Below are positions 2,877 through 48,924 of a stretch of DNA of 64,000 bases, piece by piece. Under the pieces are notes generated by a model. That model saw only the letters and a list, made by a program, of their open reading frames with translations, made no database searches and was not told where the DNA came from. The number at the start of each line of letters is the position of its first letter. Position 1 is the stretch's first letter. The position numbers were made by a program, and so were the translations under genes. The stretch comes from an uncultured Pseudohongiella sp. (GTDB lineage Bacteria > Pseudomonadota > Gammaproteobacteria > Pseudomonadales > Pseudohongiellaceae), in NCBI GenBank assembly GCA_902597095.1, contig CACJWK010000011.1, positions 207-64,206 on the forward strand, read 5' to 3'.

Positions 2877-2954
2877 AAAGAAAACCCGCCTCGCAAGATC
2901 GACCCATAAAGAATCCTAACTAGCTTTGAGTTCGGCGAGATTCGGAAGAATTTG

Positions 2955-5585: not shown

Positions 5586-5985
5586 ACAAACACTGGTTCA
5601 GAGAATCATGAATGTGCTCTAACGTAATCATCGTTGGTGCTAGCAGGCCGCGAGTTGATTTCCACACGCAGTGGGATCGATTCATACCGGCCCTCTCCAG
5701 GTTAACACAAATGACTACAATATAAGCCATACCATAGCAACAGACGACGCGCTGGTCGCGCCGGCAGACACCGCGCAGATGCTGCGTAAGATGCCTTGCG
5801 CCAATCAAAATCAAAGGGGAGGGACGATAAGCAGACCAGAGTCAAGTAATCTATCCTCTGTAAGCACCTCGCTCTCGGGATAGCCATTTCTCGCTCTATG
5901 CCGGTTCTAGTGATAGTAAATTCCTGCACGGCCATGTCTCTCAGATTTCCTAATTATTCGTGCAAAATTATTCGTATACACGCCG

Positions 5986-6321
5986 TATGGAACCAATCTG
6001 AATAAAGGTGGTACCCTCGGGGGTGGGTGCTGCCAGATGACGGTTTTTCTTTACAGGGGATGGGGTCGAATCTGATGGGACACTGGTGGGACAAGTTGGT
6101 CCCACTACCCACAACGAATGACAACCATCCACAACAGAAAAGTGTTATAGTTTAGGGGCTTAACCGTTGCAGGCCGTTGGCAATTGTTGGGTAGATTGGT
6201 CGGAGAGGGACTCATAATCCGTCGGTCCCAGGTTCGAGTCCTGGTGGGCTAACCAACTAAATCAATAAGTTACATCCCCCTCGCAGTAATTCCCCAATCG
6301 ATTTGAACTAAATTTGGACCA
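5986..6321 (+). repeat. attP-like composite element, copy c2 (diverged arms, core nearly identical, acceptor-like strand mutated)
   Basis: It has the same order of blocks as c1: TATGGAACCAA, AATAAAGG, ACCC-TCGG-GGGT, GGGTGCTGCCAG, a CA-rich tract, a GT-rich tract and GAGGGACTCATAATCCGTCGGTCCCAGGTTCGAGTCCTGG. The 3' strand is TGGGCTA-ACCA instead of TGGGCCC-ACCA. The right arm ends ATTTGAACTAAATTTGGACCA (6301-6321). Confidence 0.8.
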
Positions 6322-6347
6322 TCGCCAAAGTCAGCCACCACAAATGG

Positions 6348-6533
6348 TTGGGTTATGCCGCAGGGGCTGCATTTGTGACCAGCATCCTTTGTATGCAAGC
6401 GTTTGGTCAACCAGAGTTATATCTGCTTGCTGCTATTGCAACCCTGTTCACTTTGGTGCTGCCATCTCTTTTAACTATGGGGATTGAACATGCCGAGCAA
6501 AACTACCCCAACCGATGCCGAGCCGGCAATTAA
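6348..6533 (+). pseudogene. Possible C-terminal remnant of a membrane protein truncated at the repeat boundary
   Basis: A hydrophobic 61-aa ORF (TTG start) begins right after the c2 right arm and has no plausible N-terminus. It overlaps the next gene by 50 nt. Confidence 0.25.
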
Positions 6534-6816
6534 TATCGGCGAGATTGATCAGGTTATTCATGGACGCATGCGGCTGGGCATTATGGCTTTTCTGTCGGCG
6601 GTTAGCCCGGCCAGCTTTCCTGATTTGCTGGCCAAAACAGGTTCCAGCAATGGCAATCTCTCGACTCACCTCAGCAAGCTAGAAGCCGCAGGCTACACAA
6701 GCCAAAAGAAGGGCTATCAGGGTAAGCGCCCACAGACATTAGTTTACCTTACAGCGGCAGGCCGTAAGGCTTGGATTCAGTATCTGGAAGCTATGAAAGA
6801 GCTGCTGGGAAAATAG
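6484..6816 (+). CDS. Winged-helix transcriptional regulator (MarR/ArsR-like small wHTH)
   Basis: 110 aa. The pattern is RMRLGIMAFL...FPDL...SNGNLSTHLSKLEAAGY...TLVYLTAAGRKA, typical of small winged-helix DNA-binding proteins. Confidence 0.65.
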   Translation: MNMPSKTTPTDAEPAINIGEIDQVIHGRMRLGIMAFLSAVSPASFPDLLAKTGSSNGNLSTHLSKLEAAGYTSQKKGYQGKRPQTLVYLTAAGRKAWIQYLEAMKELLGK

Positions 6817-7079
6817 CAGCTACCCTAAAAAATATAGACCAAGCTTCAGAAATAGAGTTTCGCAACCCAACCTTAGCAGAAGCGTTTTAAACAAAGTTTT
6901 GTGAAAGAATTGAAAAACTATCGGCATCAGGGGACAGATACTAAATTGACGATACGCTCATCTATTAAGTGAAGGGAGAGCTCCGATGGCCCTTGTATCG
7001 GATTTTTACACTCGATTTAGAGACCAACAAATTTAATAAGCATATACACGGCGAACGGGCACTTTGGTTTTCAAATTAC

Positions 7080-7664
7080 TCACCCTATTGAAGTAGAGAT
7101 GAATTCCTGGATGACATAGACCGCAGCGTAAAGTGAAACAAGGATTTGTTGCTGCTTTGTCGTTTTCAGGAAGACTCCAAAGATTAGTAAAATTGGCAGA
7201 ATATATTGACTCCGCTCTAGGAGGGTTGCTTCTATACCGAGGTTGTTTCTTAAAATGTTTATGGATATCAGCAGCTGAAGCCACAAAAAAACAAAACAGA
7301 GAAAAAACACGTTCTTGTACGTCAAGAAGTATTCTTCTCTTGGCATTCGCAGTTTATCAGCACTGTTGACAGGTAAAAAACGGCTTACAAGAAAAAAAAG
7401 GATGACTGAAAGAAACGGCGCAAGCGTGAATTCAAGAATTGAGATATCGCTTCGGTCGCTATACATTCGCCAAAAGCCAAAAAAATAGCCAACAGCAGTA
7501 AACAAGACCAACAAGCCCCATGCTAGGACATGCCAGCTATTCCGAAAAGCCTCATCGAATTGAACCATTAAAGAAACTTTCGTTAGTGTGTTTGAAACTG
7601 CTAACCCCAAAACTAGCGAAACCAATATTGCTATGTATTCGAAAAGGCTCATTGAAGCAACCAA
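7080..7664 (-). CDS. Polytopic membrane protein, unknown family (paralog of 12217-12813)
   Basis: 194 aa with ~6 hydrophobic segments. The N-terminus (SLFEYIAILVSLVLGLAVSN) resembles the TVFEYSSVLMAIIVGMTVNE start of the 12217 ORF, and length and topology are the same. Confidence 0.55.
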   Translation of the reverse strand: MVASMSLFEYIAILVSLVLGLAVSNTLTKVSLMVQFDEAFRNSWHVLAWGLLVLFTAVGYFFGFWRMYSDRSDISILEFTLAPFLSVILFFLVSRFLPVNSADKLRMPREEYFLTYKNVFFLCFVFLWLQLLISINILRNNLGIEATLLERSQYILPILLIFGVFLKTTKQQQILVSLYAAVYVIQEFISTSIG

Positions 7665-7893
7665 TCTGATAAAACCATAGTAGGCAGAGTAGTATATCGC
7701 TTTCGTAAAGAGAAGCTCCTCGCCCTTTTGCGGACGACTGACAAGCGAGATTCATCTTCATTGCGGGTCGGAAATTAACGACTTGGCTTCCTAACCTCGA
7801 ACTTAACGTTAGCTCTCTTCTACAAAGTATTAGAAAGCTCGAGGAGACTCAAAGGTGGCATTATGATGAGCGCGTACAACGCATGAGCTTCAA

Positions 7894-8585
7894 TCATATG
7901 CCAGTCGAAAAACTTAACAATTTTATTTGTTTGATCGACTTGCCCTCCCAGGCAAATCTAAACAACGCAAAGAGCAGGCCATAGAGAATTCCTATTGTGG
8001 CGAACGCTACAATTTCGCCCAATGCGGAAATATCTCCAGAGGAGATACCAAATGTCCAATTTGAGACGCCAATAACTGCAAAGACAAAAACCATAGCCAG
8101 AGACGCATTGAAAGCCCTTTCAACAATCCTCGACTCAGAGAAATCAGGATGCACTAAACAAACAATTGAAATAAGCCTACAAACTCCCGCGGCTAATGGC
8201 GAAATGAAATTTGTTAATGGCAGGCCTTCGGCAACAAAATGAATCAAAGCTGCAGTTACCAGCGGTATAAATAGGGCAACTAAACAAACTTCGAGAATGC
8301 AGGTTCTATATTCTTCGATTTTCTTTGGTTCGATTATCTTAATACGGAAAGATAGGATTAGGCCGAGCGCCGCCTAACCTCGTCCATGTTTGAAACTATA
8401 GAAAGAAGGTTTAATCCACAAACACTTATTCCGATGACGATGCAACATCTCCGAAATATTTGAATCGCTCGCCATCCAATCTTAAATGATAAGCTTGCAG
8501 GCACTACTGCAAGGACCAGAAAGGGATAAATAGAGCTTCCATCGAGCATCACGAGCTCCGCATTGATATCAATCGCAGCAAGCAT
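7894..8585 (-). pseudogene. Membrane protein split into two ORF pieces (8358-8585 and 7894-8247); probable frameshift
   Basis: Both pieces are hydrophobic. The reading frame of the 7894 piece stays open upstream to about 8340 without a start codon (..IIEPKKIEEYRTCILEVCLVALFIPLVTAALIHFVAEG..). A single shift near 8340-8360 would join the two pieces. Confidence 0.35.
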
Positions 8586-8664
8586 ACCAAGTGCGACTAA
8601 AAAGACTACCCACCTTGCGACAGGATTTCTTGAAATCTGGTCTACGTCCAGTCTAGTTATTAAA

Positions 8665-9156
8665 TTATCTATTGTTTGTTAAATACCTTTCTCTGAGTCT
8701 TCTTGGAATCACGCCACTGTTCAAAGCCACAAGGTATTTTGTAGTGCTTTCAAAAACCGCGTCATATACTTTCATGCTTTTTTCTGGAATGGCTCCTCTT
8801 TCCGATTTTGTTAATACCATTTCGCAATTCATAGCATACGCAAGGTGGTAGTAATTGAGAGTAGTCAATTCTTCTTCGTCAAAAATTTCTTGAAGTGCAG
8901 CACGATCAATATGGGGAGGGAGCGGTAGCCATACCCCACCCGTTACCCTATTCCACTTTGAAAGGACTTTGCTTAATTCAGGGTTTTCTGCAGCCCCCAG
9001 CTGCATCTCCTGGGCCCGTATCTGAACTTGCTCTAGGTCCCTATTATCTTCAGCTTGCCTCTTCAATCTCATTTCCATAGCCAGAAACACAAGTGTCACA
9101 ATCAATCCTAATGCGCCAATTACCTCACCCAATGAACCTAATTCACTAATAGTCAT
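8665..9156 (-). CDS. Small single-TM protein, unknown family A (partner of the TolB-like genes)
   Basis: The start is taken at the internal ATG at 9156, which has a GAGGA RBS. The protein begins MTISELGSLGEVIGALGLIVTLVFLAMEMR, followed by a ~130-aa soluble part. Paralogs lie at 11747-12220, 16221-16681 (frameshifted) and 18363-18453 (remnant). Confidence 0.65.
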   Translation of the reverse strand: MTISELGSLGEVIGALGLIVTLVFLAMEMRLKRQAEDNRDLEQVQIRAQEMQLGAAENPELSKVLSKWNRVTGGVWLPLPPHIDRAALQEIFDEEELTTLNYYHLAYAMNCEMVLTKSERGAIPEKSMKVYDAVFESTTKYLVALNSGVIPRRLRERYLTNNR

Positions 9157-9396
9157 TTTTTCCTCGCATACCAACATTAAAAAAAGAATGAAATATAATT
9201 GCGGAACTCTAGGCCAATAATTTGGATATGCAACCATCAACAACGACCAAAAATGGTGCATTCAGTCGCTGTCGATGTTTATCAGGTTAAACATTTGTTC
9301 TGAATTTAGGTGCACTTCCCTTTTGTAGATGGATATCAATTGGTAGTATCAGAAAGTTAAAGACAAATTCAATTTCTAGAGACTGCGGAGAAACAG

Positions 9397-11571
9397 ATGC
9401 CTAGTCAGTGGGAAAGGTTCAAACAGAGTAATATCGCTAAAATAGTTATCGGCTATAGCTTGATAGTGTGGGTGCTTATTCAATTAATCGAGGCTGTTCT
9501 GCCGACGTTCGAAACACCACTCTGGGTTGCTCAAACCCTAACTTTTTTGCTCATACTAGGCTTCCCAATAGCACTTCTTGTCGGATGGGCCTACGAAAAG
9601 CTGCCTGCTCGGACGACTGACTCTGACGGAGCGGAATCAGTGCCTCAGCCAGCGCATTCAACTCCAAAGAAAACGTTAGTCATAGTTGGAATAGGATCAT
9701 GTGCCGTAATCGGGCTCTTTGGCTTCTATATGATGCCCTTTATTTTTGATGGAGATGCCTTTTCAACTCAAAACCAATCAAATGGCCCTATTGTTCAGCG
9801 TACAGCGTCTTATAAAGGCATTCGTTCCAATATCCCAATAGGGGAAAGCGGAGTTAGAAGCGGGCTCAATACTCGCACGGACATCGCAATTTCACCAGAC
9901 GGGAATTTTATAGCCTACTTAATGCACAGAGGGATCAACTCTGAGGTAATACTCCGCGATTTGCGTGGTTATGACAACCAAAAAAGTCTTGGAACTATTT
10001 CTGGCCCGGGAGGCAGTGGATCGCTGCAATTCTCACCGGACGGAGAGTGGATTGTTTTCCAAGATCGAGGACAACTTGCTCGCGTTCGCATAGAGGGAGG
10101 CTCTATCCAAATGTTACCCGGCACGGCAGAACAGCGAGCGTGGGGTAGTCATGCGATTGTGGAAGAAGACATCTATTTTATTAGCGGCTCTGGCTTTCAA
10201 GTTTACCGAATTGCCTTTTCCGGAGAAAGTGACGTAGCTGAACTAATCAGTGTGCCAGAGGAAGGCCTTTTCTTCGGCCAGCCCTCACCAATTCCTGAAA
10301 GCAACAAACTTCTGATCACGGCATGTGACGCAATTAACGGGTGGTCAGACTGCGACGTCGGCATTTTGGACATTTCTACTGGAGAAGTTGAAATAAAAAT
10401 ACAAACAGCCTTTAACGCTCGTTACGTGTCCTCAGGGCATGTGCTTTTCATCCGTGATTCTACACTTTGGGCGGTCCCCTTCGACCCTGAAACACTAAGT
10501 ATCACCGGAGGTCAAGTTCCGGTAGTTCAGGGAATCGAGGGAAATAGTTTTTACACAGGTAATTTTGCGTACTCCGTATCCGACAATGGCAGACTTGTTT
10601 ATCTTAGTGGTAGTGATGCTTTTGAAAGTGGATCTCGGGTAGACATCGCCTGGGTTGATAAAAACGGTAGCAGAGAAGCTTTACCACTTCCAGAGGGCAC
10701 CTATGGAAATATTAACTTATCACCGGAGCAAGATCGTTTGGCGATGACCTCATACGATGGAACGGGTTCAGATGTTTGGATTTGGAACCTTGAGCAGCAG
10801 ATTTTTTCAAGACTCACCTTTCATGACGACGCAGCCTATCCTGTCTGGTCACCTGACGGCTCAGAAGTGATTTACCAGAGAACTCGTCCGCCTTTTGGGC
10901 TCTGGGCTACATCTTCGGATGGAACTGGCCGTGCCTCAATGCTCACTGAATCGCAACAACCATTATATCCTGAAACTATTTCTCCAGACGGCCAAGTGAT
11001 TTTTTCAGTAGGCGATAACACTGCAAGGAAACTGTATAGTTCAAACCTTTCAGATGAGAGGATTCAAACTTTAATAGACATAGGGCCCAATCAAGTACGA
11101 AGCTCACGAATCTCTCCCGATGGCAACTGGCTTCTCTATACCAGCGACGAAAGTGGAGATTTTGAAGCCTTTGTAAGGCCCTGGCCGAATTACGATGACG
11201 GTAAGTGGCAAGCAAGCCGGCTAGGTGGAGGACAGCCATTGTGGGATCAAAGTAATAACCGCCTGTATTTTTGGGCAGCGAGTGGGACTCAATATACAGT
11301 CGACTATGAGATTCAGACAGATGCCAGATCAGGTCGACCATCGTTCCGTTTTCAAGAGCCAAGAGAATTATTCACCTTACGCGAACCCCGATCACTGCAA
11401 ATTTTTCCCGGTTGGGCCTATCATGAAAGCCAAGATAAATTTCTAATGGTGGCGGCAGGAGGTATTGAAGCCGACGCAACTGAGCAAGTGCTCGCTCAAC
11501 AAACAGTTCTATCGCTTGTTGAATACTGGGATAAAGAACTCCAAAGCTTAGCGCCAGCTACAACCCCATAA
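9397..11571 (+). CDS. TolB-like beta-propeller protein with conserved N-terminal membrane anchor (copy 1)
   Basis: 724 aa. The N-terminal anchor reads ERFKQSNIAKIVIGYSLIVWVLIQLIEAVLPTFETPLWVAQTLTFLLILGFPIALLVGWAYE. Repeated [ILFW]SPDG PD40-type blades follow (ISPDGNF, FSPDGEW, WSPDGSE, ISPDGQV, ISPDGNW). The C-terminus is VEYWDKELQSLAP. Confidence 0.8.
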   Translation: MPSQWERFKQSNIAKIVIGYSLIVWVLIQLIEAVLPTFETPLWVAQTLTFLLILGFPIALLVGWAYEKLPARTTDSDGAESVPQPAHSTPKKTLVIVGIGSCAVIGLFGFYMMPFIFDGDAFSTQNQSNGPIVQRTASYKGIRSNIPIGESGVRSGLNTRTDIAISPDGNFIAYLMHRGINSEVILRDLRGYDNQKSLGTISGPGGSGSLQFSPDGEWIVFQDRGQLARVRIEGGSIQMLPGTAEQRAWGSHAIVEEDIYFISGSGFQVYRIAFSGESDVAELISVPEEGLFFGQPSPIPESNKLLITACDAINGWSDCDVGILDISTGEVEIKIQTAFNARYVSSGHVLFIRDSTLWAVPFDPETLSITGGQVPVVQGIEGNSFYTGNFAYSVSDNGRLVYLSGSDAFESGSRVDIAWVDKNGSREALPLPEGTYGNINLSPEQDRLAMTSYDGTGSDVWIWNLEQQIFSRLTFHDDAAYPVWSPDGSEVIYQRTRPPFGLWATSSDGTGRASMLTESQQPLYPETISPDGQVIFSVGDNTARKLYSSNLSDERIQTLIDIGPNQVRSSRISPDGNWLLYTSDESGDFEAFVRPWPNYDDGKWQASRLGGGQPLWDQSNNRLYFWAASGTQYTVDYEIQTDARSGRPSFRFQEPRELFTLREPRSLQIFPGWAYHESQDKFLMVAAGGIEADATEQVLAQQTVLSLVEYWDKELQSLAPATTP

Positions 11572-11746
11572 CCACAGGCGTCTCGCTCAGCGAGGGGGAC
11601 ACCTCTTACTATGTCAGGTGGGAACATGTTCAGATGGAGTATTGGGGCTATTTCCATCATCTAGGCTAACTCCCGTGTCCTCGGGATTCCTGTAGAATTA
11701 TTAGCTCATAAGACGAGCATCTGAATCTCTTCACCAGGCAAGAGTC

Positions 11747-12220
11747 ATGAAGATATCCACGATTAATGAAGTTATTTCGATTATCGCGAACATTGGTGTG
11801 ATCGCATCGATTGTATTTCTTGGACTTGAGATGAGACAGAACTCAAGCATGATGCTGTCGCAGACCAGAAATGAAATGACCCAGAATCAAATGGAAACGC
11901 AGCTTGCTGTTGTTGAGAATAGCGACTATGCAAAGATACACAATGCTTTACGGGCTGATCCCAACGCTTTCCCAGTTAGTTCATCGGAGGCACTACAAGC
12001 GTATTTCTGGAATATAACTCAGCTCCGTATGTGGGAAAACGAGTGGTATCAGTATCAGAATGGCCTATTTGATGAAACTGAGTTCGAGCCAAGACTAAAT
12101 TTATGGCGTAATTCAATGTCCAACCCGTACAACATTTTAGTTTGGGAGCAACAAAGACTGAATTTTTCCCCCGATTTCAGGGAATTGCTGGATAACCTCA
12201 TCCAGGAGCCGAACCCGTGA
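11747..12220 (+). CDS. Small single-TM protein, unknown family A (diverged paralog)
   Basis: 157 aa. It has an N-terminal TM ending FLGLEMRQN, as in 8665-9156, then a W/Y/Q-rich soluble domain. Its stop overlaps the next start (GTGA at 12217-12220). Confidence 0.6.
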   Translation: MKISTINEVISIIANIGVIASIVFLGLEMRQNSSMMLSQTRNEMTQNQMETQLAVVENSDYAKIHNALRADPNAFPVSSSEALQAYFWNITQLRMWENEWYQYQNGLFDETEFEPRLNLWRNSMSNPYNILVWEQQRLNFSPDFRELLDNLIQEPNP

Positions 12221-12813
12221 CTGTTTTTGAATATAGTTCAGTACTCATGGCAATAATAGTTGGTATGACAGTCAATGAGTTACTGCAAAGAATCACGAAT
12301 ATTCTATCTAGGGAAAATGGCCTTGCTTTATATTGGTACGAAGCCTTCTTTACGATTATATTTCTCATAGCTACGATCGCCTATTTCTTTAGCTATTTCA
12401 GCATAGCGGGTAGTGCTGACGTGATCACTGTGACTATGTTCTTAGGACCATTCACGGTCATCTGTGTTTGGTACATCCTCATCTTTTTTTTTCCAGTTCC
12501 GAAAAAAGAAGATGGTGCGATAGATATTGAAGCGCACTTCATTTCAAAGGTTCCTAGGTGGGCCGCTTTTAATGGTCTGTTTATGATCGCTATTCCATTT
12601 GCAATGCTGACTATGGATAACGACATTAGCCTGCTCTTAATAAGCGCCAGTATCCAAAACTATCTTGGGGGGCTGTTGATGACTTCTTTAGGCGTCTTGA
12701 CTCCTATTATTGTTTCCCGAGTTGGAATCCGAAGATTTAAGTTCTGCATGGCCGCCTTATCTGCACCTTGGAGTCTTATTGTCGTTGCCAATAGCTTCTA
12801 TACCTTGTCTTGA
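12217..12813 (+). CDS. Polytopic membrane protein, unknown family (paralog of 7080-7664)
   Basis: 198 aa with ~6 TM segments and an FEY N-terminus. It is translationally coupled to 11747-12220. Confidence 0.55.
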   Translation: MTVFEYSSVLMAIIVGMTVNELLQRITNILSRENGLALYWYEAFFTIIFLIATIAYFFSYFSIAGSADVITVTMFLGPFTVICVWYILIFFFPVPKKEDGAIDIEAHFISKVPRWAAFNGLFMIAIPFAMLTMDNDISLLLISASIQNYLGGLLMTSLGVLTPIIVSRVGIRRFKFCMAALSAPWSLIVVANSFYTLS

Positions 12814-13435
12814 GGAGACCAAGGGCTACAGCGACAGTTTGGCTTTGCTAGTGCGAGAAGAAGCGACTGTTAGATTATTACCCTAGCTTTGGCTTCCTCC
12901 CCCGCGTTCTCGGGGTTCCTTCAGCAAACAAACCAACCTTAAAACCTAACTCTTCTAATTCTCTCAGTTCAGCCAGCTTGGCACTGCGCTCTGCGGGTTT
13001 TTCTCTGTTTTCTCTACCGTGAACTACTGGACGACCACTGCCTTCAGCGCCCCGTGGAATCGACTCTTGATCTTACCTCGGACAGCTGGTGCTATACGCC
13101 TTTGCCGTGTCCGTTTCGATAGTGCATTGCACTGGGTGCATGTCACGCGCCCGCCGATAGTTGTATATTGGTCAATAGGCACTCACTCCGTACTCATGTC
13201 ACCAATAATTCCGCATAGTGAAGTAGATCTTATAAATATAGCATTGACCCCAATTGACCTTACGCCTGAAACTTCTTTCAATAATGTTCTGAAGTGAGAT
13301 TACGGTTTGCGAATAGATGCTATCGACATTAATTGCGCCTCTGAGCATCCCTCTACCCCAGGCCTTATAGGCTTCTTCAATAAACTTTAACTTATGAGCA
13401 TAACCTTGATTCCAATAAATGAAGTCGAGTTTGGT

Positions 13436-13485
13436 GTCTCCAGGTTCGAGTCCTGGTGGGCCCACCAACTAAATCAATAAGTTAC
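13436..13485 (+). repeat. att core fragment (T-arm to ACCA plus 18 nt of the right arm)
   Basis: GTCTCCAGGTTCGAGTCCTGGTGGGCCCACCAACTAAATCAATAAGTTAC matches 1340-1388. Homology is lost on both sides. Confidence 0.8.
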
Positions 13486-13564
13486 GTGCTGCTACTCTAC
13501 ACCTCATCCAACGAATCATTTACGATGTAACGATGGATATAAGCACAAAATTACCATAGATCAT

Positions 13565-13656
13565 CTAACCCTTCGAACGACCCCCCCCCCAAAATAAAAG
13601 CAAACCGGCATCTGACTCGCCCACCCGAGCCCCCCTTTATTCAGTTTTGTTCCATA
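13565..13656 (-). repeat. Left-arm fragment (c4) of the composite repeat, inverted orientation
   Basis: The reverse complement reads TATGGAACAAAACTGAATAAAGGGGGGCTCGGGTGGGCGAGTCAGATGCCGGTTTGCTTTTATTTTGGGGGGGGGGTCG. The block order matches 1103-1190. It contains a C10/G10 homopolymer at 13581-13590. Confidence 0.7.
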
Positions 13657-13730
13657 CGCAATATTTGAGTCTTATTTACTAATGAAGGTTATAAAAATCG
13701 AATGTTGTCTAGCATTAGCGCCGGGCGAAA

Positions 13731-15983
13731 TTACTGAGGGTGATCGAAGGGTACTAAAGTCGCCAGCTCATCGAACCAGTTTTCAACGACGTTCACGATA
13801 ACTTGTGACTCTAAAATTCTTACGCCACCGTCTGAGTCATTTGTGAAAATAAATTCTGTTTCGCTCAAAACATCAAAATTTGGTTGATTACCATTTATAG
13901 GTTTGTTCGACTCAACCAATAATTCAGGACTACTTGCAATCAGGAATTCTGGTCTTCCGGTCTCTAATAAAGGTCCGTACTCTATTTCGGCTTGAAATAT
14001 TTGGGTACTGCCTCTCGACTCAAGCTCCCCATCAAACTCTTGCCTGGTGAAGTAAAGTTTATTCCCATCAGGGTGCCAGTCGAATGAGCTTACATTTCTG
14101 CCAGAAGTAATCTGATATTTACCCTGCGTAATGCTCGGGAAAGACTGTACATATAATTGTCTGCCCCCTGTTTCATTGCTTAGATATGCTATCCAGTTGC
14201 CATCTGGCGAGATCCTTGAGAGGTTTACTCTGAAACCTGGTGGGGTTATTAGTGGCTCGTGGACATTTTCACTGTTGGCATTACTCAAATTAAAAGTGTA
14301 AATCCCACCAGTTGGACTATTCTCTGAATAGACAATAAGGTCCCCGGAGGGAGAGATCGTTTCTAAGTCAATACGGGAAAAAGGGGTCGAGGTTATAAAC
14401 TCGGCAATTGAGGATCCATTAGAGGCTGTCCTCCAAATTTCTGCAGTAGCGTTTTGCTCGGATTGATAAAAAATCGACTGCCCATCACTACTCCATATTG
14501 GAGTGCCATCAACCCCGCCAAAACTTCTCCTTCCCAGGCTTTCTCTTACTAGATCCCAAATCCAGACATCTCTCGAGCCAGACTCATCTAGCCTTGTCAT
14601 TGCAACCGAGTTCTGATCAGGACTTGCTGCAATTTCAGCAAATGAACTTTCCGGAATATTTACCTTCCTAGCTTCGCCAGAGTGACTGAGTCGTGTTAGC
14701 TCTATGTCCAGAACATTAAAATTGCCGGAACCCCTCCGCATCAAGTTACCTGAGATGTATACTAACCTACCATCGTTAGAAAAATTATAATTTCCATAGT
14801 AGAGGTCTCTGCTGATTGTGGTCTCGATACCATTTACCACAGGCACTGAACTTCCCTGAATAGTCATATCTGAGATGCTAAACGGTACTGCCCATAAAGT
14901 ATCCGCCTGCAAGTAAGTAATATGTCCGGACCTTGCATATTTCGATTGATAACCTCGATCTATGATTATTTTAGACACGCCAGTTTTAAGATCTATTAAG
15001 ATAACTTTTGGCTCTTGTTCTGAGAAAACCACCGGCAAAATAGTCGCCATCAAGTAATCAGTATTATCAATAAACTCTAACCAAACAGCTCTTTCACCAT
15101 CATTCTCTACTTCATAGATTAATTCTGTGTCCTCAGAGCCGATGGCTTTTTTTAAAATCTTCCCATCCTGAGTGCCAAAAAATAGAATATTCCCTCTGAC
15201 AGTAAAACCAGTAAGGAGCAGGGGACCGTCTTGAATTGTCTGCGCCGTTCCCCCTTCGACTCTTACACGATTTAATTTCGACCCTCGGTCCGAATAATAA
15301 TAAATCCAGTCGTTCCCACTCTTAAAGGAAGGGAAGCCTGATCTATTCTCAACAGAACCTCGACCTGTATTTAAGCCAGAACGCTGTAAACTCAATGGCT
15401 CGCTGTAACTCTGTAGACTCCTCGCGTAATATTGTGACCCCCTCTCTCCAGGCCTGGCCACTCTATAAATCAGAGTAGCACCATCTGGAGAAAGCGCAAT
15501 CTCTGACTTTAAACCATTCGCTTTTTGCCGACTAACGCCTATGTCGATTTGTGCCTTTAATACGTTTGCTGTACCAGGTCCGTCTGGAGAAATGATGCTT
15601 GGCCTGGACCGTTGCTGAAACTCGCTACTGTTAAAAATAAACGGCATCAAGTAGAAGCCGAAGAGCCCAATTACGGCACATGACCCTGCTCCAACTATGG
15701 CCAGCGTTTTCTTTGGAGTTGAATGTGCTGGCTGGAGCTCTGATTTTACGTCGTCAGTATCAGTAGACTGAGCAGGTAGCTTTTCGTAGGCCCACCCAAC
15801 AAGTAATGCAATAGGGAAACCTAGAATCAGCAAAAAAGTGAGGGTTTGAGCAACCCAGAGGGGTGTTTCAAAAGTGGGTAACACGGCCTCGATCAACTGG
15901 ATTAGCACCCAAACTACTAAGCTGTAGCCAATCACTACTTTTGCAATATTGCTCTGCTTGAACCTTTCCCACCGGCTAGGCAT
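13731..15983 (-). CDS. TolB-like beta-propeller protein with conserved N-terminal membrane anchor (copy 2)
   Basis: The start is taken at the internal ATG at 15983 (MPSRWERFKQSNIAKVVIGYSLVVWVLIQLIEAVLPTFETPLWVAQTLTF...), by analogy with copy 1. It has PD40-type SPDG repeats and the C-terminus VVENWFDELATLVP. Confidence 0.8.
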   Translation of the reverse strand: MPSRWERFKQSNIAKVVIGYSLVVWVLIQLIEAVLPTFETPLWVAQTLTFLLILGFPIALLVGWAYEKLPAQSTDTDDVKSELQPAHSTPKKTLAIVGAGSCAVIGLFGFYLMPFIFNSSEFQQRSRPSIISPDGPGTANVLKAQIDIGVSRQKANGLKSEIALSPDGATLIYRVARPGERGSQYYARSLQSYSEPLSLQRSGLNTGRGSVENRSGFPSFKSGNDWIYYYSDRGSKLNRVRVEGGTAQTIQDGPLLLTGFTVRGNILFFGTQDGKILKKAIGSEDTELIYEVENDGERAVWLEFIDNTDYLMATILPVVFSEQEPKVILIDLKTGVSKIIIDRGYQSKYARSGHITYLQADTLWAVPFSISDMTIQGSSVPVVNGIETTISRDLYYGNYNFSNDGRLVYISGNLMRRGSGNFNVLDIELTRLSHSGEARKVNIPESSFAEIAASPDQNSVAMTRLDESGSRDVWIWDLVRESLGRRSFGGVDGTPIWSSDGQSIFYQSEQNATAEIWRTASNGSSIAEFITSTPFSRIDLETISPSGDLIVYSENSPTGGIYTFNLSNANSENVHEPLITPPGFRVNLSRISPDGNWIAYLSNETGGRQLYVQSFPSITQGKYQITSGRNVSSFDWHPDGNKLYFTRQEFDGELESRGSTQIFQAEIEYGPLLETGRPEFLIASSPELLVESNKPINGNQPNFDVLSETEFIFTNDSDGGVRILESQVIVNVVENWFDELATLVPFDHPQ

Positions 15984-16220
15984 CTCTTTCCCCAAATTTT
16001 TAGAAGCTAAAACTTCAACTGGTTCGATGTTATCAAATTCACTGTTCTCAACAAAAGCAGTCTGATAGCCACAATAATAATTCATTTGGATCCGCCACCA
16101 ACGAATACCTCATTACGCACTATTTTTGGTCATCTATTCTGCTGATTTGACCGATTTATGTATTCAGAGATTCGCCATCATATGTAAACCTTTTTTTAAA
16201 TATTGGTATGAGAGGACAAA

Positions 16221-16681
16221 ATGACTATTAGTGAACTAGGTTCGTTGGGAGAGGTGGTAGGAGCTTTTGGGTTGATTGTGACGCTTGTGTTTCTTGCGAT
16301 AGAAATGCGCATGAAAAGGGAAGACAAGCGTTATAGGGACCTTGAAAGGTACAAATCCGCAATCAAGAACTCCAACTGAGCGTCGCCACGAGCCTATCAC
16401 TTTGTAGTGTCATGACGAAGTGGAACAATTTGACCGGCGGCCATTTCCAGCCACTGCCGAGCGGAGTAGCGGCATATTCAGTCGCTGAGCTTTTTACCGA
16501 AGAAGAGAGGACAGCTCTTGTTTTCTACTTCTACGGCAGCGCCATGAATTTTGAAACGATTTTAGCCAAATTCAATAGAGGCGATATTCCGGAAGCAAGC
16601 ATGCGACATTATGACTCTGTCTTGAAAGAGTCGGCTAGGTATCTTACTGTTCTTGGGAATTTGACGATGCCAAAAGGTTAG
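16221..16681 (+). pseudogene. Family A small TM protein gene inactivated by a frameshift near 16340
   Basis: Frame 1 gives MTISELGSLGEVVGAFGLIVTLVFLAIEMRMKREDKRYRDLER.., then a stop at 16377-16379. A second frame continues KVQIRNQELQLSVATSLSLCSVMTKWNNLTGGHFQPLP... That continuation aligns with EQVQIRAQEMQLGAAENPELSKVLSKWNRVTGGVWLPLP of the intact paralog at 8665-9156. Confidence 0.75.
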
Positions 16682-16842
16682 GCGAAAGATATTTATCAAA
16701 TCAGTAAAATTGGTTTGATTGAGAACGCACGCTCGGGGCATCTCCTGATGCGAGTTCGAAATCATGTGATGCTATTTCCCAACTAGCAGAAACACATGAC
16801 ACAGTATCTCCTAAGGCCATCATAATCTATATGTATACACCA

Positions 16843-17050
16843 TATGGAACCAATATTAATAAAGGAGGTACACCCGCGGGTGGGTGATGTCAGATGAAGG
16901 TAAAATTTTTAAGGGGTGAGGTCTGCGGCCTCTTGACACGCGGGGTGACAACATATTCTGCTCCACCCAACAGATGGTAAAAATATATAATCAACTGCTT
17001 GCTGGACGATCGAGAGGCCCTTGTTGAGGATAGATTATTCGACGCTCAGG
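16843..17050 (+). repeat. Left-arm copy (c3) of the composite repeat, without the tRNA-like core
   Basis: TATGGAACCAATATTAATAAAGGAGGTACACCCGCGGGTGGGTGATGTCAGATGAAGG... follows the block order of 1103-1320 but is diverged. No T-arm or ACCA follows. Confidence 0.6.
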
Positions 17051-17115
17051 AGCGTCCCTAGACATTTTTAGGGCATTCTACTGGTGAGCTGATAATTTCG
17101 ATGGGAAAAGGTCGC

Positions 17116-18246
17116 CTACTTGGGCACTGCCTGCATTAGCGCCGTCCAGAACGCATCGTTGAAACTGACGCCGTCCTTATCTCCGTGAAACCCCAAGCGA
17201 CTCACTACCAAATTCAGGCTTGGCACCAGATAAAGCTTGCGATCACCCGCACCCTGCATGGCGACTAGGTCATCCGGCGCTGTGGGGATTAGCTTGCCCT
17301 CCGACCGAGTCGCCTTGCTGCCCGCACCGAGGGCAAACTCTTGGCCATTTATCCACCAGAGGAGGCCGTACGCTGGGTTTAGGGTTTGTGAGGGAGACAG
17401 CATGCCAGCAATAAAGTCAGTATCTTCGAGTACAACCTCATCACCCCATCTGCCGCCTGCCTGAATCATCAAGCCGAAGCGAGCCAGATCTCGAGCGGTT
17501 GTGGACAAACCCACCGCGATAGCTGCGTCGCGGCCAGGACGAGGCGTCCACACCGTGTTGCTTGCGCCGATTGGATCGCTTATCCAGCGTTTGGTCAGTT
17601 CATTGCGCTCCAGGCCCGTTGCTGACATGAGCACTCGCATGGTGGCATGGTATACAGGCGTGTTATAGAGCCAGACAGTACCCGGCGCTGCCTCATAGCT
17701 GAAGTCAGTGGCCAGGCCGCTGTTCATCATGAGCAGATGTCTCAAGGTAATGGCCTGCTCCTGATCAGCATTTGCCTTGGACCAGCCCGCACCAAGGTAA
17801 ATGGAAACAGCATCATCCAACTTGAGGTAACCCCGCTCCTGAGCTATGCCTGCCAAAATCGCCACAACACTCTTTTGCGCGGAAGCCACATCTTCAATTG
17901 CGCGCTGCTGTTCATCGAGCCCCTTAAGAGAACGTCCGTAGCGGGCATCCTCTGGACCGTCCCAATAGCGTTCAGCCATGATTCGACCGCTATGCACTAT
18001 GACAATACCGGAGGAATTGCGATCTCCCACAACGTCGAGAGCATCGGAAAGTGCCTGCGCGTTCCAGCCAATCCGATCAGGGGCAACGGTTTCCCAGTTT
18101 TCGCCAGAAGGTGGGAAATATAGCTCTGCAGAGTAGGCGATGACGGAAGCAAACAAAGCTAGCAAAGAGGTTAGAGAGCTTATTAGGACAAACATCTGGT
18201 TCTCAATAGAAAACGAAAGAGCTGATCGGAAGTCGAATGCTAGCAA
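17116..18246 (-). CDS. Serine hydrolase, beta-lactamase family, secreted
   Basis: 376 aa. It has an S-x-x-K motif (ASAQKSV) and a signal-like MFVLISSLTSLLALFASVIAYSA, so the true start may be the internal ATG near 18195. General beta-lactamase-related layout. Confidence 0.65.
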   Translation of the reverse strand: MLAFDFRSALSFSIENQMFVLISSLTSLLALFASVIAYSAELYFPPSGENWETVAPDRIGWNAQALSDALDVVGDRNSSGIVIVHSGRIMAERYWDGPEDARYGRSLKGLDEQQRAIEDVASAQKSVVAILAGIAQERGYLKLDDAVSIYLGAGWSKANADQEQAITLRHLLMMNSGLATDFSYEAAPGTVWLYNTPVYHATMRVLMSATGLERNELTKRWISDPIGASNTVWTPRPGRDAAIAVGLSTTARDLARFGLMIQAGGRWGDEVVLEDTDFIAGMLSPSQTLNPAYGLLWWINGQEFALGAGSKATRSEGKLIPTAPDDLVAMQGAGDRKLYLVPSLNLVVSRLGFHGDKDGVSFNDAFWTALMQAVPK

Positions 18247-18362
18247 GCCTACTAATCAGCTAAACAAAACTCAAGCAGGGCAATTAGACGCGGATTCTAT
18301 CGAAAAAGCGAAGCGACAAGTTCCAAGAAATAAAAGAAGCCAAGAGCGTTTTCGCGGCATTA

Positions 18363-18453
18363 ATCTCATTTCCATAGCCAGAAACACAAGTGTCACGATG
18401 AATCCTAATGCGACAACCACCTCACCCAACGAACCTGGTTCACGAATAGTCAT
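18363..18453 (-). pseudogene. 5' remnant (about 31 codons) of a family A small TM protein gene
   Basis: It encodes MTIREPGSLGEVVVALGFIVTLVFLAMEMRL. The DNA is clearly homologous to 9064-9156. The reading frame then diverges into unrelated sequence. Confidence 0.7.
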
Positions 18454-18684
18454 TTTGTCCTACTTAATCAAAATTCAAAATCAGCTTGAATATAGTACCG
18501 GAACTTCAGCCCCATGATTGGGGTATGCAATTAGCAAGAATGACCAAAAATGGTGCATTAGGTCGTCCCTATGCTTACAAGCTAAAGCTTATGCTACAAA
18601 TCTAATAGCTCCTCCCTTTTGCTGAGAAAATTCGATTGCTAATATGGAGTGGTAGCCAAGGTTCAGGATAACTGGAGGATCGAA

Positions 18685-20904
18685 GTGATAAACCCGTTGG
18701 AGAAGTTCAAGCATCGAAACATTGCTAAAGTCGCTACAGCATATGCTGTTGTTGGGTGGTTGATGCTGCAAATGACTGAGATCATACTTCCAACTTTCAA
18801 TGCCCCTCAGTGGATCGCTCAAACCATAATTTTTGTGGTCATTATGGGCTTTCCTATTGCACTGCTAATCGCTTGGGCATCCGAATTGAAATCAGACGTC
18901 AACGATCACGCCTATAGAGAATCGACACTTGAATCGAGCGCGATAAGGGCATCGGGTAGTCAAATTCCAAAAAAACTATTTTATGGCGTGGGTGCAATTA
19001 GCGTTTCTGTGATCGGCCTATTCGCGTTTTACGTTTCAACCAGCCTATTCGATGTAAACAGCCCCAATGAAGAATTGTCCCGCACAACTGGCGGCGCACA
19101 ATTTGAAACTGCACAAAACTTTAGAGGGCCAAGATTCAGTCTGAATCTCGGCGCGACAGGGTATCGAGCCCTACAGAACACAACGACTGACCTCGCGTTT
19201 TCAAATAATGGGAGGCTGCTAGCTTTTCTTGACCATGGCGCTACAACATCCGAAATATTTATAAAAGATCTTCTGTTCCCTGACTCAACAAGGTTGTTAG
19301 GTACTATTGGTTGGACACAAGGAAGTGGCCAGATGTTTTTTTCAGAAGACGGAGAATGGCTTCATTTTATCGATAAGGGGCAATTAAAAAGGGTTCGCGT
19401 TGAGGGCGGCCAATTCCAAACACTCAATGAAGCGGTCACGGTGGTAAGAAGTGGCTTCAGTTCGTTTGACGATAATTTGATCTACAGCAATATCGCAGAC
19501 GGTAAGCTGTATAAACAAATCCTGAGTACGGGCGAAACAAGCAAAATTGAAGTCGATGAAGATGGTGGAAGCTTTTATTCGTGGCCGAAAATTCTTCCCG
19601 ATTATGCTCACTTGCTAGTGACATCTTCAGATAATGCAACGAGTGTGGGCGACGGAAATATTCAAGTCATCGAGCTAGAAACTGGTGTTGCGAAAACCTT
19701 GATTAGGACTGCATCGAATGCCCAATATGTGAACTCAGGTCACATAGTTTTTATCAGAGATGCAGCGCTCTGGGCAGTACCGTTCGATCTTGAGTCACTC
19801 ACATTGAGTGGCGCTCAAGTTCCGGTAATCCAAGGCATAGAAACAAATAGTCAGTACGGCCATGCAACCTTTTCTGTGTCTGATCTCGGAAGGTTGACCT
19901 ACCTCCCTGGTAAAGACAGAGGAGAAGTTGGTGAAGAGTTGGAGCTTAAGTGGATCAGCAAAGATGGCAACGTGACCGGTTCAAACTTAGCAACGGCGTC
20001 TTATGGACACATCGAGCTATCACCGACAGGAGATCGGGCGGCTTTTACCATCTACACGGGCGATGGCTCTTCTGACATATGGGTTTGGGACTTAGGTCGG
20101 GGCACATTAGGCCGAAGGACCTTTGACGGCAAAGCGTCAAGATCAATCTGGTCAGCAAATGGTGACACCCTCTATTACAGGCACCTTGACCTTGGACTTC
20201 GAGCAGTCGCTGCTAATGGAACCGAGCAGCCAATTACCCTATTTGAAACTGACTCACCGCTCTGGCCACAAACAATCTCTCCAGATGGTTCTGCAATTAT
20301 TTTTAACACTGGACAACCTTATGCAACTTACAGATTGTCTCTTGATGATGAAATAGCGGGATCGAACGAACTTAGTGCTGAAGTTGTAAACTTGACGCCC
20401 GTGGTTCCACTTTTCTTGAGTGCAGAAATCTCGCCAACTGGAGATTTCATATCATATTGCTCTAACGAGTCAGGACTGAATCAAGTATATGTCAGACCAT
20501 GGCCAGAAATCGAGAGAGGAAAATGGCAAGCAAGTATCAGTGGCGGATGTGGAGCGACGTGGGATTCATCTGAAGAGCTTCTCTATTATCGGTTCTCAGG
20601 GGTAATGTATGAGGTCCCATATTCTTTGGGTGAATTCAACGACCAGGGTAAACCAACCTTAATCGAATTTGACATACCCACAGAGCTCGAAGCGATGGGC
20701 AGACTAAGCTTTGTCAATTCCCCTAACACATGGGACCCATATGATTACTCTGAGGATAGAGATCAATTTATAGTTGTTGGCAGGATTGGATCGGCATTGG
20801 AAGGCCTTGAGGAGGAACTGCTGTCCGCACAAACAACATTAGTGGTGGTCGAAAATTGGTTTGACGAACTCTTGAGTCTTGCCCCTTCCGCTAGGAGCCT
20901 CTGA
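18685..20904 (+). CDS. TolB-like beta-propeller protein with N-terminal membrane anchor (copy 3, most diverged)
   Basis: The start is taken at GTG 18685, five nt after a GGAGGA RBS. The N-terminus reads INPLEKFKHRNIAKVATAYAVVGWLMLQMTEIILPTFNAPQWIAQTIIFVVIMGFPIALLIAWASE. It has SPDG/SPTG blades and the C-terminus VVENWFDELLSLAP. Confidence 0.8.
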   Translation: MINPLEKFKHRNIAKVATAYAVVGWLMLQMTEIILPTFNAPQWIAQTIIFVVIMGFPIALLIAWASELKSDVNDHAYRESTLESSAIRASGSQIPKKLFYGVGAISVSVIGLFAFYVSTSLFDVNSPNEELSRTTGGAQFETAQNFRGPRFSLNLGATGYRALQNTTTDLAFSNNGRLLAFLDHGATTSEIFIKDLLFPDSTRLLGTIGWTQGSGQMFFSEDGEWLHFIDKGQLKRVRVEGGQFQTLNEAVTVVRSGFSSFDDNLIYSNIADGKLYKQILSTGETSKIEVDEDGGSFYSWPKILPDYAHLLVTSSDNATSVGDGNIQVIELETGVAKTLIRTASNAQYVNSGHIVFIRDAALWAVPFDLESLTLSGAQVPVIQGIETNSQYGHATFSVSDLGRLTYLPGKDRGEVGEELELKWISKDGNVTGSNLATASYGHIELSPTGDRAAFTIYTGDGSSDIWVWDLGRGTLGRRTFDGKASRSIWSANGDTLYYRHLDLGLRAVAANGTEQPITLFETDSPLWPQTISPDGSAIIFNTGQPYATYRLSLDDEIAGSNELSAEVVNLTPVVPLFLSAEISPTGDFISYCSNESGLNQVYVRPWPEIERGKWQASISGGCGATWDSSEELLYYRFSGVMYEVPYSLGEFNDQGKPTLIEFDIPTELEAMGRLSFVNSPNTWDPYDYSEDRDQFIVVGRIGSALEGLEEELLSAQTTLVVVENWFDELLSLAPSARSL

Positions 20905-21034
20905 GGGTAGAGGTTTCACATTGTTTTCAATTAAGATGGCAAATCAAACATATACTCCTGATATATTTGTTGCCATTGAGTCTAAAGAGAATGTGCAACG
21001 CTCAAGCCCATGAAATCAAAACTTGGAGAAAAAG

Positions 21035-21266
21035 ATGCCTAGTCAGTTGGAAAGGTTCAAGCAGAGTAATATTGCTGAGATAGTAATCGGTTATAGCTTG
21101 GTAGTGTGGGTGCTTATCCAACTGATTGAGGCCGCGCTGCCCCACTATCGAAACTCTCCTCTGGGTTGCTCAAACACTAACTTTCTTACTCATTCTGGTC
21201 TTTCCAATAGCTCTGCTTGTGGGATGGGCCTATGAGACATTACCTGCTCAACCTACTGAAACTAGT
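21035..21266 (+). pseudogene. 5' remnant of a fourth TolB-like gene (anchor region only, frameshifted)
   Basis: It encodes MPSQLERFKQSNIAEIVIGYSLVVWVLIQLIEAAL. A frameshift follows, and a second frame gives ..LWVAQTLTFLLILVFPIALLVGWAYETLPAQP. The DNA is homologous to 9397-9610. It is truncated at a repeat-arm fragment. Confidence 0.8.
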
Positions 21267-21310
21267 TACAACAAGTGGCAACAGGAAAGCTGCGGCGATA
21301 CCTTACGTCA
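21267..21310 (+). repeat. Short fragment (c6) of the composite-repeat left arm
   Basis: TACAACAAGTGGCAACAGGAAAGCTGCGGCGATACCTTACGTCA aligns with 1238-1281 (GACAACAACTGGCAATAGAAAAGCTGCAGTGATACCTTACTTTT) with a few mismatches. Confidence 0.55.
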
Positions 21311-21479
21311 AAAGCAGTTACAAAACCGAGCACACTGGATGTGTGACACCATCGAAGATCTTAGGAATATTGCTGTTATCATTCGAGTGCGACAACAAGT
21401 GCTGGAGCTTTGTGAACAATTCCCTGTCTATCGAGTTCGAACACGGCTAACAAATAATGTCGCTTAATGGTTATGTACG

Positions 21480-48650: not shown

Positions 48651-48781
48651 CCTTGGAGTGGGCCTACCCCCAGTTGAATAGCGTTCGACACCCTCAGAAC
48701 AGACTACTCTGGTTTGATAACCTCCCGTGAAATGATAACCACCTTTAACAAAAAAGTGTCTTGATTAAGACGCTTACCCGT

Positions 48782-48924
48782 CGCAGGCTGTTGAGGTGTT
48801 TTGTGGTTGATTGTCTGCGAGGGACTCATAATCCGTCGGTCCCAGGTTCGAGTCCTGGTGGGCCCAACAACTAAATCAATAAGTTACACCTCCCTCGCAA
48901 TAACACCCCAATCGATTTGGACCA
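48782..48924 (+). repeat. att copy c5: 40 nt of left arm + tRNA-like core (CCA mutated to ACA) + right arm, immediately upstream of the integrase remnant
   Basis: The sequence is CGCAGGCTGTTGAGGTGTTTTGTGGTTGATTGTCTGCGAGGGACTCATAATCCGTCGGTCCCAGGTTCGAGTCCTGGTGGGCCCAACAACTAAATCAATAAGTTACAC...ATTTGGACCA. It is nearly identical to 1283-1425. Confidence 0.85.

Follow-up and report, generated by a model that had tools for sequence, protein, structure and literature searches.

TolB-like membrane propeller genes and their divergent partners in an island-like region of an uncultured Pseudohongiella

The array and its genes

We analysed a stretch of 64,000 nucleotides (nt) of contig CACJWK010000011.1 from an uncultured Pseudohongiella species (the window), and we concentrate here on an array region at 7-21.5 kb that holds every member of two gene families present in the window: TolB-like genes, which we label T (T1-T3 intact, T4 a stub), and genes for small proteins with a single transmembrane (TM) helix, which we label A. 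Polytopic membrane genes are labelled M or X295, and L-numbers denote the loci with which the region was compared. Proteins at least 90% identical to those encoded here occur in marine metagenome-assembled genomes (MAGs) and single-amplified genomes (SAGs) labelled Pseudohongiellaceae or Gammaproteobacteria, in one MAG labelled 'Rhodospirillaceae', and in many Tara and other seawater assemblies. The T, A and membrane protein genes, with the spacers between divergent neighbours, are as follows (AF2, AlphaFold2 model; ORF, open reading frame).

7080-7664 (-): M2, polytopic membrane protein, a distant paralog of M1
7835-8672 (-): X295 pseudogene in at least three frames (ORFs 8358-8585 and 7894-8247), recognised by BLASTP/tblastn against the intact genes of L003, L006, L038, L046 and L078
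8665-9156 (-): A1, intact bitopic protein with an N-terminal TM helix followed by an all-helical domain (ORF, AF2)
9157-9396: divergent spacer between A1 and T1, 240 nt, with a 19-nt motif at 9242-9260
9397-11571 (+): T1, 2-TM hairpin, linker, third TM helix, tandem beta-propeller and C-terminal helix (PD40, AF2, Foldseek/PDB)
11747-12220 (+): A4, A-superfamily protein only remotely related to A1, at the head of the A4-M1 operon
12217-12813 (+): M1, polytopic membrane protein, its start overlapping the A4 stop
13731-15983 (-): T2, intact paralog
15984-16220: spacer between A2 and T2, 237 nt, with the motif at 16116-16134
16221-16681 (+): A2, frameshifted A pseudogene
18361-18453 (-): A3, 31-codon stub with its breakpoint at 18362
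18454-18684: spacer between A3 and T3, 231 nt, with a perfect motif copy at 18539-18557
18685-20904 (+): T3, intact paralog
21035-21266 (+): T4, frameshifted remnant of the anchor only

An earlier note on this DNA, made from the letters alone, had described much of this arrangement, and as a description it holds up well. All of its ORFs are present; the three full TolB-like genes carry PD40 repeats and the 5' remnant is the frameshifted T4 stub; the shared N-terminal anchor (over the first 70 amino acids [aa], T1 is 96% identical to T2 and 48% identical to T3) and the VENWFDEL-type C-terminus, a VENW/YW..EL motif common to T1, T2 and T3, are both found. The note had given every TolB-like gene a divergent A partner, which is true of T1-T3, in the states it listed (A1 intact, A2 frameshifted, A3 a stub), and not of T4, which has none. 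It had counted A4 as a second gene of the A family; a superfamily alignment does join A4 to A1, only as a remote relative, whose N-terminal 64 aa are 28% identical to A1 and which matches the A1 hidden Markov model at E = 3e-5. The coupling of A4 to M1 (a 4-nt overlap) is real, as is the paralogy of M2 and M1, which is distant: over 111 aa the two are 21% identical, at E = 4e-8 in a search of a small database, and each matches an M-like gene in L014. The X295 pseudogene and a further gene remnant at 12890-13176 had been overlooked. The note's view that this is not housekeeping Tol-Pal agrees with the TIGR02800 (TolB) scores of T1-T3, which at 62.7, 58.5 and 24.4 bits lie far below the cutoff of 343. 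Its interpretation of the array as a diversifying envelope system, such as receptor/immunity or sensor/partner, is weighed further below.

Architecture, relatives and age of the T proteins

The AF2 model of T1 (mean predicted local distance difference test [pLDDT] 85.5, from a 71-sequence alignment) has helices at residues 12-38, 42-68 and 91-117, about 46 beta-strands between residues 143 and 708, and a terminal helix at 711-718. Its top Foldseek matches are two-propeller proteins (LRP6 E3E4 and tricorn protease) and TolB, and by sequence the closest solved structure is TolB (E = 1e-19). T1-T3, which are pairwise 37-40% identical overall, form a large and old inner-membrane family made up of a hairpin, a linker, a third TM helix, a tandem propeller of about 580 aa, and a closing NWF(D/E)EL strand and helix.

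A full-length search with T1 returned about 75 T-like proteins of 700-750 aa, followed by eukaryotic-like Ser/Thr kinases of about 870-990 aa that combine Pkinase with Tricorn_N/PD40 and match T1 at 29-33% identity over about 78% of its length (E = 1e-48 to 1e-68). The extracytoplasmic part of these kinases bears the same Tricorn_N/Tricorn_2nd/PD40 signature as T, and in 16 of 22 PD40-type kinases the NW...L motif (...NWFEELKRLVP) forms the C-terminal end, indicating that the conserved C-terminus of T is a hallmark of the whole propeller family. Pfam detected no Pkinase domain in T1-T3, where residues 1-117 are three TM helices and a linker, and domain searches of T found no other recognisable cytoplasmic output domain, catalytic domain or toxin domain. 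These alignments show the T propeller to be homologous to the extracytoplasmic domain of PD40/Tricorn-type Ser/Thr kinases, with the hairpin standing in place of the kinase. Hanks-type Ser/Thr kinases with PD40/Tricorn_N are abundant in Acidobacteriota and other groups. In prokaryotic kinases PD40 is one of the most frequently attached domains (PMC2877116); our literature searches found no paper assigning a ligand to the PD40 propellers of kinases, and no description of a module of T, A and X295.

The hairpin anchor extends far beyond this family. An earlier word-index search with the anchor alone gave close fragments only, and an exhaustive profile search was used instead: when 1.84 billion representative proteins (50% identity clusters) were searched with a profile built from T1-T3 residues 1-70, there were 9,843 matching clusters with E <= 1e-3 and 2,143 with E <= 1e-10. 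Its position is almost always N-terminal, on proteins of widely differing length; among 60 sampled, 22 carry PD40, about 19 carry TPR, and FlgO/TolB_N-like domains appear occasionally, while columns Y20, P36, P41, W43, P57 and W64 are invariant. T1-T3 meet the hairpin pattern Y..W..Q / LP.F..P.W / GFP.AL..W..E, for which Pfam has no matching model, and the same anchor sits on a TPR protein in a deltaproteobacterial locus (L020). Its presence in thousands of proteins of unrelated length marks the anchor as a generic, highly constrained membrane module rather than a signature of this array.

The near-identity of the T1 and T2 anchors is not recent. Between these two anchors the rate of nonsynonymous substitution (dN) is 0.025 and that of synonymous substitution (dS) is 1.55, whereas in the bodies, which are 26-36% identical, dS is saturated and dN is 0.74-1.07. 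The anchor dS between T1 and its 75%-identical ortholog in L016 is 1.6, like that between the paralogs, and across comparisons it ranges from 1.25 to 1.8. Recent gene conversion was rejected as the cause of the anchor identity on the basis of these values, which indicate that the identity reflects constraint and not recent exchange. T1 has orthologs at 75%, 69%, 59% and 58% identity and T3 at 93%, 66% and 64%; in a neighbour-joining tree of 46 ectodomains T1, T2 and T3 fall in three separate deep clades. T1-T3 are thus ancient separate lineages, each with its own orthologs elsewhere. One MAG has at least three T genes on separate contigs, and tandem T genes occur in L031 and L036.

We evaluated dN/dS (omega) along the gene on T3 and its 93%-identical ortholog in L038, the sole unsaturated ortholog pair; omega is about 0.08 in the anchor and then 0.3, 0.27, 0.19 and 0.14 towards the C-terminus, so that in this pair the entire propeller is under purifying selection. 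The conserved ends around a divergent middle are the outcome of unequal constraint on ancient paralogs, and not of cassette-like diversification. Cluster sizes at 90% identity supply a caveat that favours the earlier note's reading: they are 1 for T1, 46 for A4, 37 for M1, 64 for sdaA and 21 for T3, and the T1 slot is more variable in the population than its flanks. As a separate observation, T residues 71-120 (window 9610-9750 and equivalents) have a dS of 0.56-0.78, below both the anchor and the saturated body, in paralog and ortholog comparisons alike and despite weaker amino-acid conservation; this low dS in the linker and third TM helix may reflect constraint at the nucleotide level, or noise from a small sample (50 codons).

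Pairing, decay and island setting

A scan of 185,579 species genomes with an A profile found only six loci with A1-type genes, which are thus very rare and too few for a genome-wide co-occurrence statistic. Instead, we fetched 51 metagenome T loci and counted those T genes, 27 in all, whose upstream sequence extends for 590 nt or more. An A gene lies upstream in divergent orientation, about 210-245 nt away, in 10 of the 27, and L040 makes 11. The paired loci belong to the T1 clade, the T3 clade and three other clades, and two large clades have no A. A genes stand beside T in L003 (twice), L006-9, L014 and L016 and nearby in L005; they occur without T in L004/L017 and L010. The co-occurrence and divergent orientation that the earlier note proposed checking in relatives thus recur across deep T clades, and the pairing is real and non-random.

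The spacer that separates the two genes measures 231-245 nt in 17 aligned loci and keeps both Shine-Dalgarno regions. It contains a conserved 19-nt block, AATGACCAAAAATRGTGCA, about 130 nt upstream of T, and also, as read by eye from the spacer alignment, a -35/-10-like TTGTTG...TAAnAT pair upstream of T. The block has three matches in the window (0.05 expected), one in each spacer between A and T, and is found as well upstream of T genes that have no A, for example in L066. A scan with sigma-70 and terminator consensus patterns gave fewer promoter-like sites than shuffled sequences, and none in the spacers, and was uninformative. Conservation of the spacer despite saturated synonymous sites points to a functional cis-element that belongs primarily to T. 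In two MAGs A and T are separated by an inserted DUF2147 gene (L003 9220-9762 [-] and L016 6116-6670 [-]); its start corresponds to the first 17 codons of T (88% identical to MPSQWERFKQSNIAKIV; compare window 9397-9447), and it has a 19-nt motif copy of its own, so that it has apparently captured the promoter and start of a T gene.

The partner protein itself has few relatives. The AF2 model of A1 (mean pLDDT 84.6) is all-alpha, with a 55-residue helix (TM segment plus extension) followed by a small helical bundle; Foldseek found no structural relative at E < 1, no PDB entry matched by sequence, and neither A1 nor M2 matched Pfam, NCBIfam, PADLOC or PHROGs. Members of the A superfamily share a TM helix at the N-terminus, whose end reads ...(F/Y)(L/V)(A/G)xE/Q(I/M/L)(R/K)..., and a central (F/Y)x(Y/F)xxGxxx(E/D)xx(W/F) motif; the C-terminal halves of the T-paired A proteins have diverged (42% identity between A1 and A2). 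From its acidic N-terminus and the RLKR stretch that follows the TM segment, A would be oriented N-out/C-in; the soluble domain would then probably be cytoplasmic, and A would meet T only in the plane of the membrane or at the linker. A polytopic membrane gene tends to come after an A-type gene, as in A1-X295 and A4-M1: X295, a 295-aa polytopic membrane gene, overlaps the preceding A by 8 nt in L003, L006, L038, L046 and L078. Since relatives carry an A-X295 operon, the intact unit is T with a divergent A-X295, and not T with A alone. A-superfamily arrays without T are found in a Pseudomonadales MAG (L019) and beside tRNA-Leu in a Pseudohongiellaceae MAG (L074); L019 has at least six A-like paralogs in 13 kb, with no T among them, and a segmental duplication of about 1.7 kb (1701-3440 and 11578-13317) that carries two A-superfamily genes.

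Much of the array is broken, namely A2, A3, X295, T4 and the gene remnant at 12890-13176. The A2 frameshift lies near 16320-16410, and the region is identical, with zero differences, in contigs from three independent public metagenome runs, which shows that the frameshift is not an assembly error. The A3 stub runs into unrelated sequence; in runs X2 and X4 contigs break exactly at 18362 and continue as A-like sequence or an intact A gene, and in run X27 a contig diverges at 21260 into the repeat element described below. Both the A3 truncation and the junction of T4 with the repeat are therefore polymorphic in natural populations. In L038 and L078 the T3 ortholog, 93% identical, has intact A and X295 genes next to it, and a broken A beside a full-length T is also seen in L014, L021, L024, L025, L048 and L064. 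Programmed frameshifting in A was considered and rejected, because the breaks fall at different positions in different loci. All in all, the divergent unit of T and A is old and was apparently duplicated as a block, but is facultative. Contigs of low depth from four marine metatranscriptomes, 95-100% identical to the window, cover all three intact T genes as well as M1, the X295 pseudogene and the hydrolase gene listed next.

The remaining features belong to the setting of the array.

6165-6273 (+; full copy about 6045-6273): repeat element whose 3' end resembles the 3' half of a tRNA-Met, left border of the T/A region
6484-6816 (+): winged-helix regulator (HTH_34/ArsR-like; Pfam HTH_34, E = 7e-23), first gene within the bracketed region
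12890-13176 (-): frameshifted remnant of a 130-aa gene that adjoins X295 in L078 (tblastn, 61-76% identity, two frames)
13440-13485 (+): 46-nt copy of the 3' end of the tRNA-Met-like repeat (att-like fragment), in mid-region
17116-18246 (-): beta-lactamase-family serine hydrolase abutting the A3 stub (Pfam, E = 6e-21)
21248-21315 (+): partial copy (5' part) of the repeat element, joined to the T4 stub at its end and forming the right border

The repeat is about 110-230 nt long, has the same orientation in all copies, and ends in a tRNA-Met-like 3' half plus ACTAAATCAATAAGTTAC; in the copy at 6165-6273 the tRNA-like part comprises the anticodon-loop CTCATAA, the T-arm, the acceptor 3' strand and CCA, and the repeats reach about 100-200 nt upstream of it. 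Full copies lie at about 1160-1388, 6045-6273 and 48665-48887 of the window, and partial ones at 13440-13485 and 21248-21315; elsewhere we found copies in L078 (12215-12440), L004 (about 9560-9767 and 10950-11181) and L023 (1-78). The repeat borders T/A modules, flanking an A gene in L004, following T3 in L078 and truncating T4 in the window. As a tRNA or noncoding RNA it was not supported: ARAGORN called none, Rfam gave no match at the gathering threshold or at E <= 1, and RNAalifold on six copies yielded a weak tRNA-like fold with an oversized D-loop and almost no covariation. It differs from the genuine tRNA-Met of L072 and L078, and metatranscriptome contigs contain a genuine tRNA with the same last 45 nt or so; we leave it as an unexplained repeat.

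Related loci place similar cargo at varied sites. L078 has, in order, tRNA-Met, an intact integrase, small genes, X295-A divergent from the T3 ortholog, and a repeat copy; in L016 the T1 ortholog adjoins transfer-messenger RNA (tmRNA); in L074 tRNA-Leu is followed by an integrase fragment, A4-M1 and further A paralogs; and in L014 a T and A pair abuts an integrase/primase/helicase element. L077, a relative with an sdaA at least 90% identical, has unrelated genes at the position of the array. Integrases are thus present in L078, L014 and L074, and in the window neither Pfam nor tblastn found an integrase or integrase remnant. The serine hydrolase at 17116-18246 is 91-95% identical in relatives and adjoins T/A genes there too. 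The region is island-like and structurally polymorphic, and the earlier note's placement of the array in an island is borne out by the repeats, this polymorphism, and the integrases and tRNA sites of relatives. The L014 element (4922-13791) encodes a 1,063-aa Mrr_cat-DEAD/ResIII helicase-HA protein, a D5_N primase and a tyrosine integrase, and is a mobile element with a possible defence gene. For the array genes a defence or phage origin was rejected, since PADLOC and PHROGs returned zero matches for T, A, A4, M1, M2, X295, DUF2147 and Y269.

Interpretation and relation to known systems

We read the locus as a whole as an ancient, kinase-less, sensor-like twin-propeller family with a facultative A-X295 operon and a T-linked cis-element, carried in a decaying and recombining island, and we put the probability of this reading at about 0.55. 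T would be a kinase-less, sensor-like receptor, in which the twin propeller would bind a periplasmic ligand (a protein or a polymer fragment) and the invariant hairpin would couple T to something within the membrane. The unit of T and A-X295 would have been duplicated as a block and be co-regulated through the shared spacer, with A-X295 as an accessory that T does not require, because it has been lost repeatedly while T stays intact. Several points weigh against this reading. The function proposed for T is read from fold and homology. Adjacency of T and A is documented only in a narrow set of marine gammaproteobacteria (Pseudohongiellaceae-like MAGs and SAGs), so that part of it could be inherited synteny; 17 of the 27 T loci have no A, and A occurs without T in L004, L010 and L019, so that any functional tie is facultative. 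The topology of A is predicted from charge distribution only, the metatranscriptome contigs may include DNA carry-over, and dN/dS comes from one ortholog pair, which leaves room for positive selection in a few loops.

The diversifying envelope system of the earlier note, in which a fast-evolving propeller would have A as the cognate partner of each variant, we now regard as very unlikely. It would account for the contrast between the 96%-identical anchors of T1 and T2 and their 26-36%-identical bodies, for the single-member T1 cluster beside the 46 and 37 members of those of A4 and M1, for the diverged C-terminal halves of A and for the structural polymorphism of the locus. But an anchor dS of 1.55 makes the paralogs old, they have orthologs at 58-93% identity, and both conserved ends are superfamily-wide, the anchor being found in 9,843 clusters and the C-terminus being shared with kinases. 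The dN/dS profile along the propeller that the note had proposed gave no diversifying signal (omega about 0.08-0.3 for T3 against L038), and what it had named as grounds for abandoning its idea, ancient orthologous families, is largely what we found, though several lineages coexist in one genome. A is often a pseudogene beside an intact T, which speaks against an obligate immunity or antidote role; its soluble domain is probably cytoplasmic and the propeller probably periplasmic; and neither PADLOC nor PHROGs gave a match. A reading with no functional link at all, in which T and A-X295 are neighbours by descent within a narrow lineage and a junk-accumulating island, and the spacer blocks are simply their own promoters, seems to us unlikely, even though it fits the A genes without T (L004/L017, L010 and the arrays of L019 and L074), the T loci without A (17 of 27), the free decay of A, and a 19-nt motif that stays with T when A is absent (L066) and was copied together with 17 codons of T onto the DUF2147 gene. 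Against it, adjacency and orientation have been kept across T clades with saturated dS and bodies at most 40% identical, the spacer length has been held at 231-245 nt in 17 loci, the pair was apparently duplicated as a block at least three times, and A1-type genes are otherwise extremely rare.

It is also conceivable, if improbable, that T serves not in signalling but as a substrate-capture or gating module for neighbouring hydrolases that break down dissolved organic matter in the periplasm, much as the propellers of tricorn, DPP-IV or prolyl oligopeptidase do. In favour of this idea are the fold and a weak resemblance at the profile level to tricorn, DPPIV_N and the N-terminal propellers of S9 peptidases, as well as a beta-lactamase-family hydrolase and a carboxylesterase that recur beside T (in the window, L003 and L078) and the peptide ATP-binding cassette (ABC) transporter and GGT genes downstream in the window; yet no catalytic domain is present in T, the neighbouring hydrolases are variable and share no operon with it, and the closest full-length homologs are sensor kinases. 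We offer as speculation, with similarly low expectation, a more specific form of our preferred reading, in which T and A-X295 would form a three-protein inner-membrane module controlled by a dedicated 19-nt operator, with T as a twin-propeller receptor that signals through its hairpin, A as a bitopic helical adaptor and X295 as a polytopic effector or channel. If true, such a module would couple periplasmic recognition to membrane activity without a kinase in oligotrophic marine bacteria, and the frequent loss of A-X295 would tune or silence individual receptors in the population.

Under the sensor-like reading, the locus presents a kinase-less version of the twin propeller of the kinases that is multi-copy, island-borne and abundant in marine gammaproteobacteria, apparently transcribed in situ, and linked to a small membrane operon and a conserved cis-element. 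With one ectodomain, one hairpin and one motif it would offer a compact and tractable entry point to the propeller family and to a widespread, unnamed 2-TM hairpin. It also corrects a tempting misreading, in which conserved ends and a divergent middle are taken as diversification.

Comparison with known systems places the T genes as follows. TolB shares PD40 blades with T and is among its Foldseek matches, but it has one propeller to T's two, T lacks TolB_N (Pfam), and TolB is a soluble periplasmic protein with a signal peptide whereas T is membrane-integral with three TM helices (AF2). TolB is encoded in the tolQRA-tolB-pal cluster; the T region at 7-21.5 kb has no tolQRA or pal, T is multi-copy in an island, and it is surrounded by A, X295 and M genes, a gene of the beta-lactamase family and one for a serine dehydratase. 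From polymorphic toxin/immunity and toxin-antitoxin systems the array differs in that T has no toxin domain, A is broken beside an intact T (in the window and six loci), and PADLOC finds no match, and from a locus under diversifying selection in the omega of 0.14-0.3 across the T3 ectodomain (against L038, one pair). It resembles islands that target tRNA or tmRNA genes in the tRNA-3'-end-like direct repeats that bracket the region, in cargo at tRNA-Met with an integrase (L078), at tmRNA (L016) and at tRNA-Leu with an integrase fragment (L074), and in presence/absence polymorphism; it differs in that the window has no integrase and the repeats do not reproduce the genuine tRNA-Met found in L072/L078. 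The N-terminal hairpin is common to T and to the unnamed 2-TM hairpin proteins ('ELKRRxVFxVxxxYxxxAWxxxQ...P.F..P.W...GFP.AL..AW..E'), which mostly carry TPR or FlgO/TolB_N-like domains and not a twin propeller. PD40 Hanks kinases differ from T in having a kinase domain, where the N-terminus of T is the 2-TM hairpin; they share with it the tandem propeller, a TM helix right before the propeller, and the C-terminal (V/I)xNWFEELxxLxP ending.

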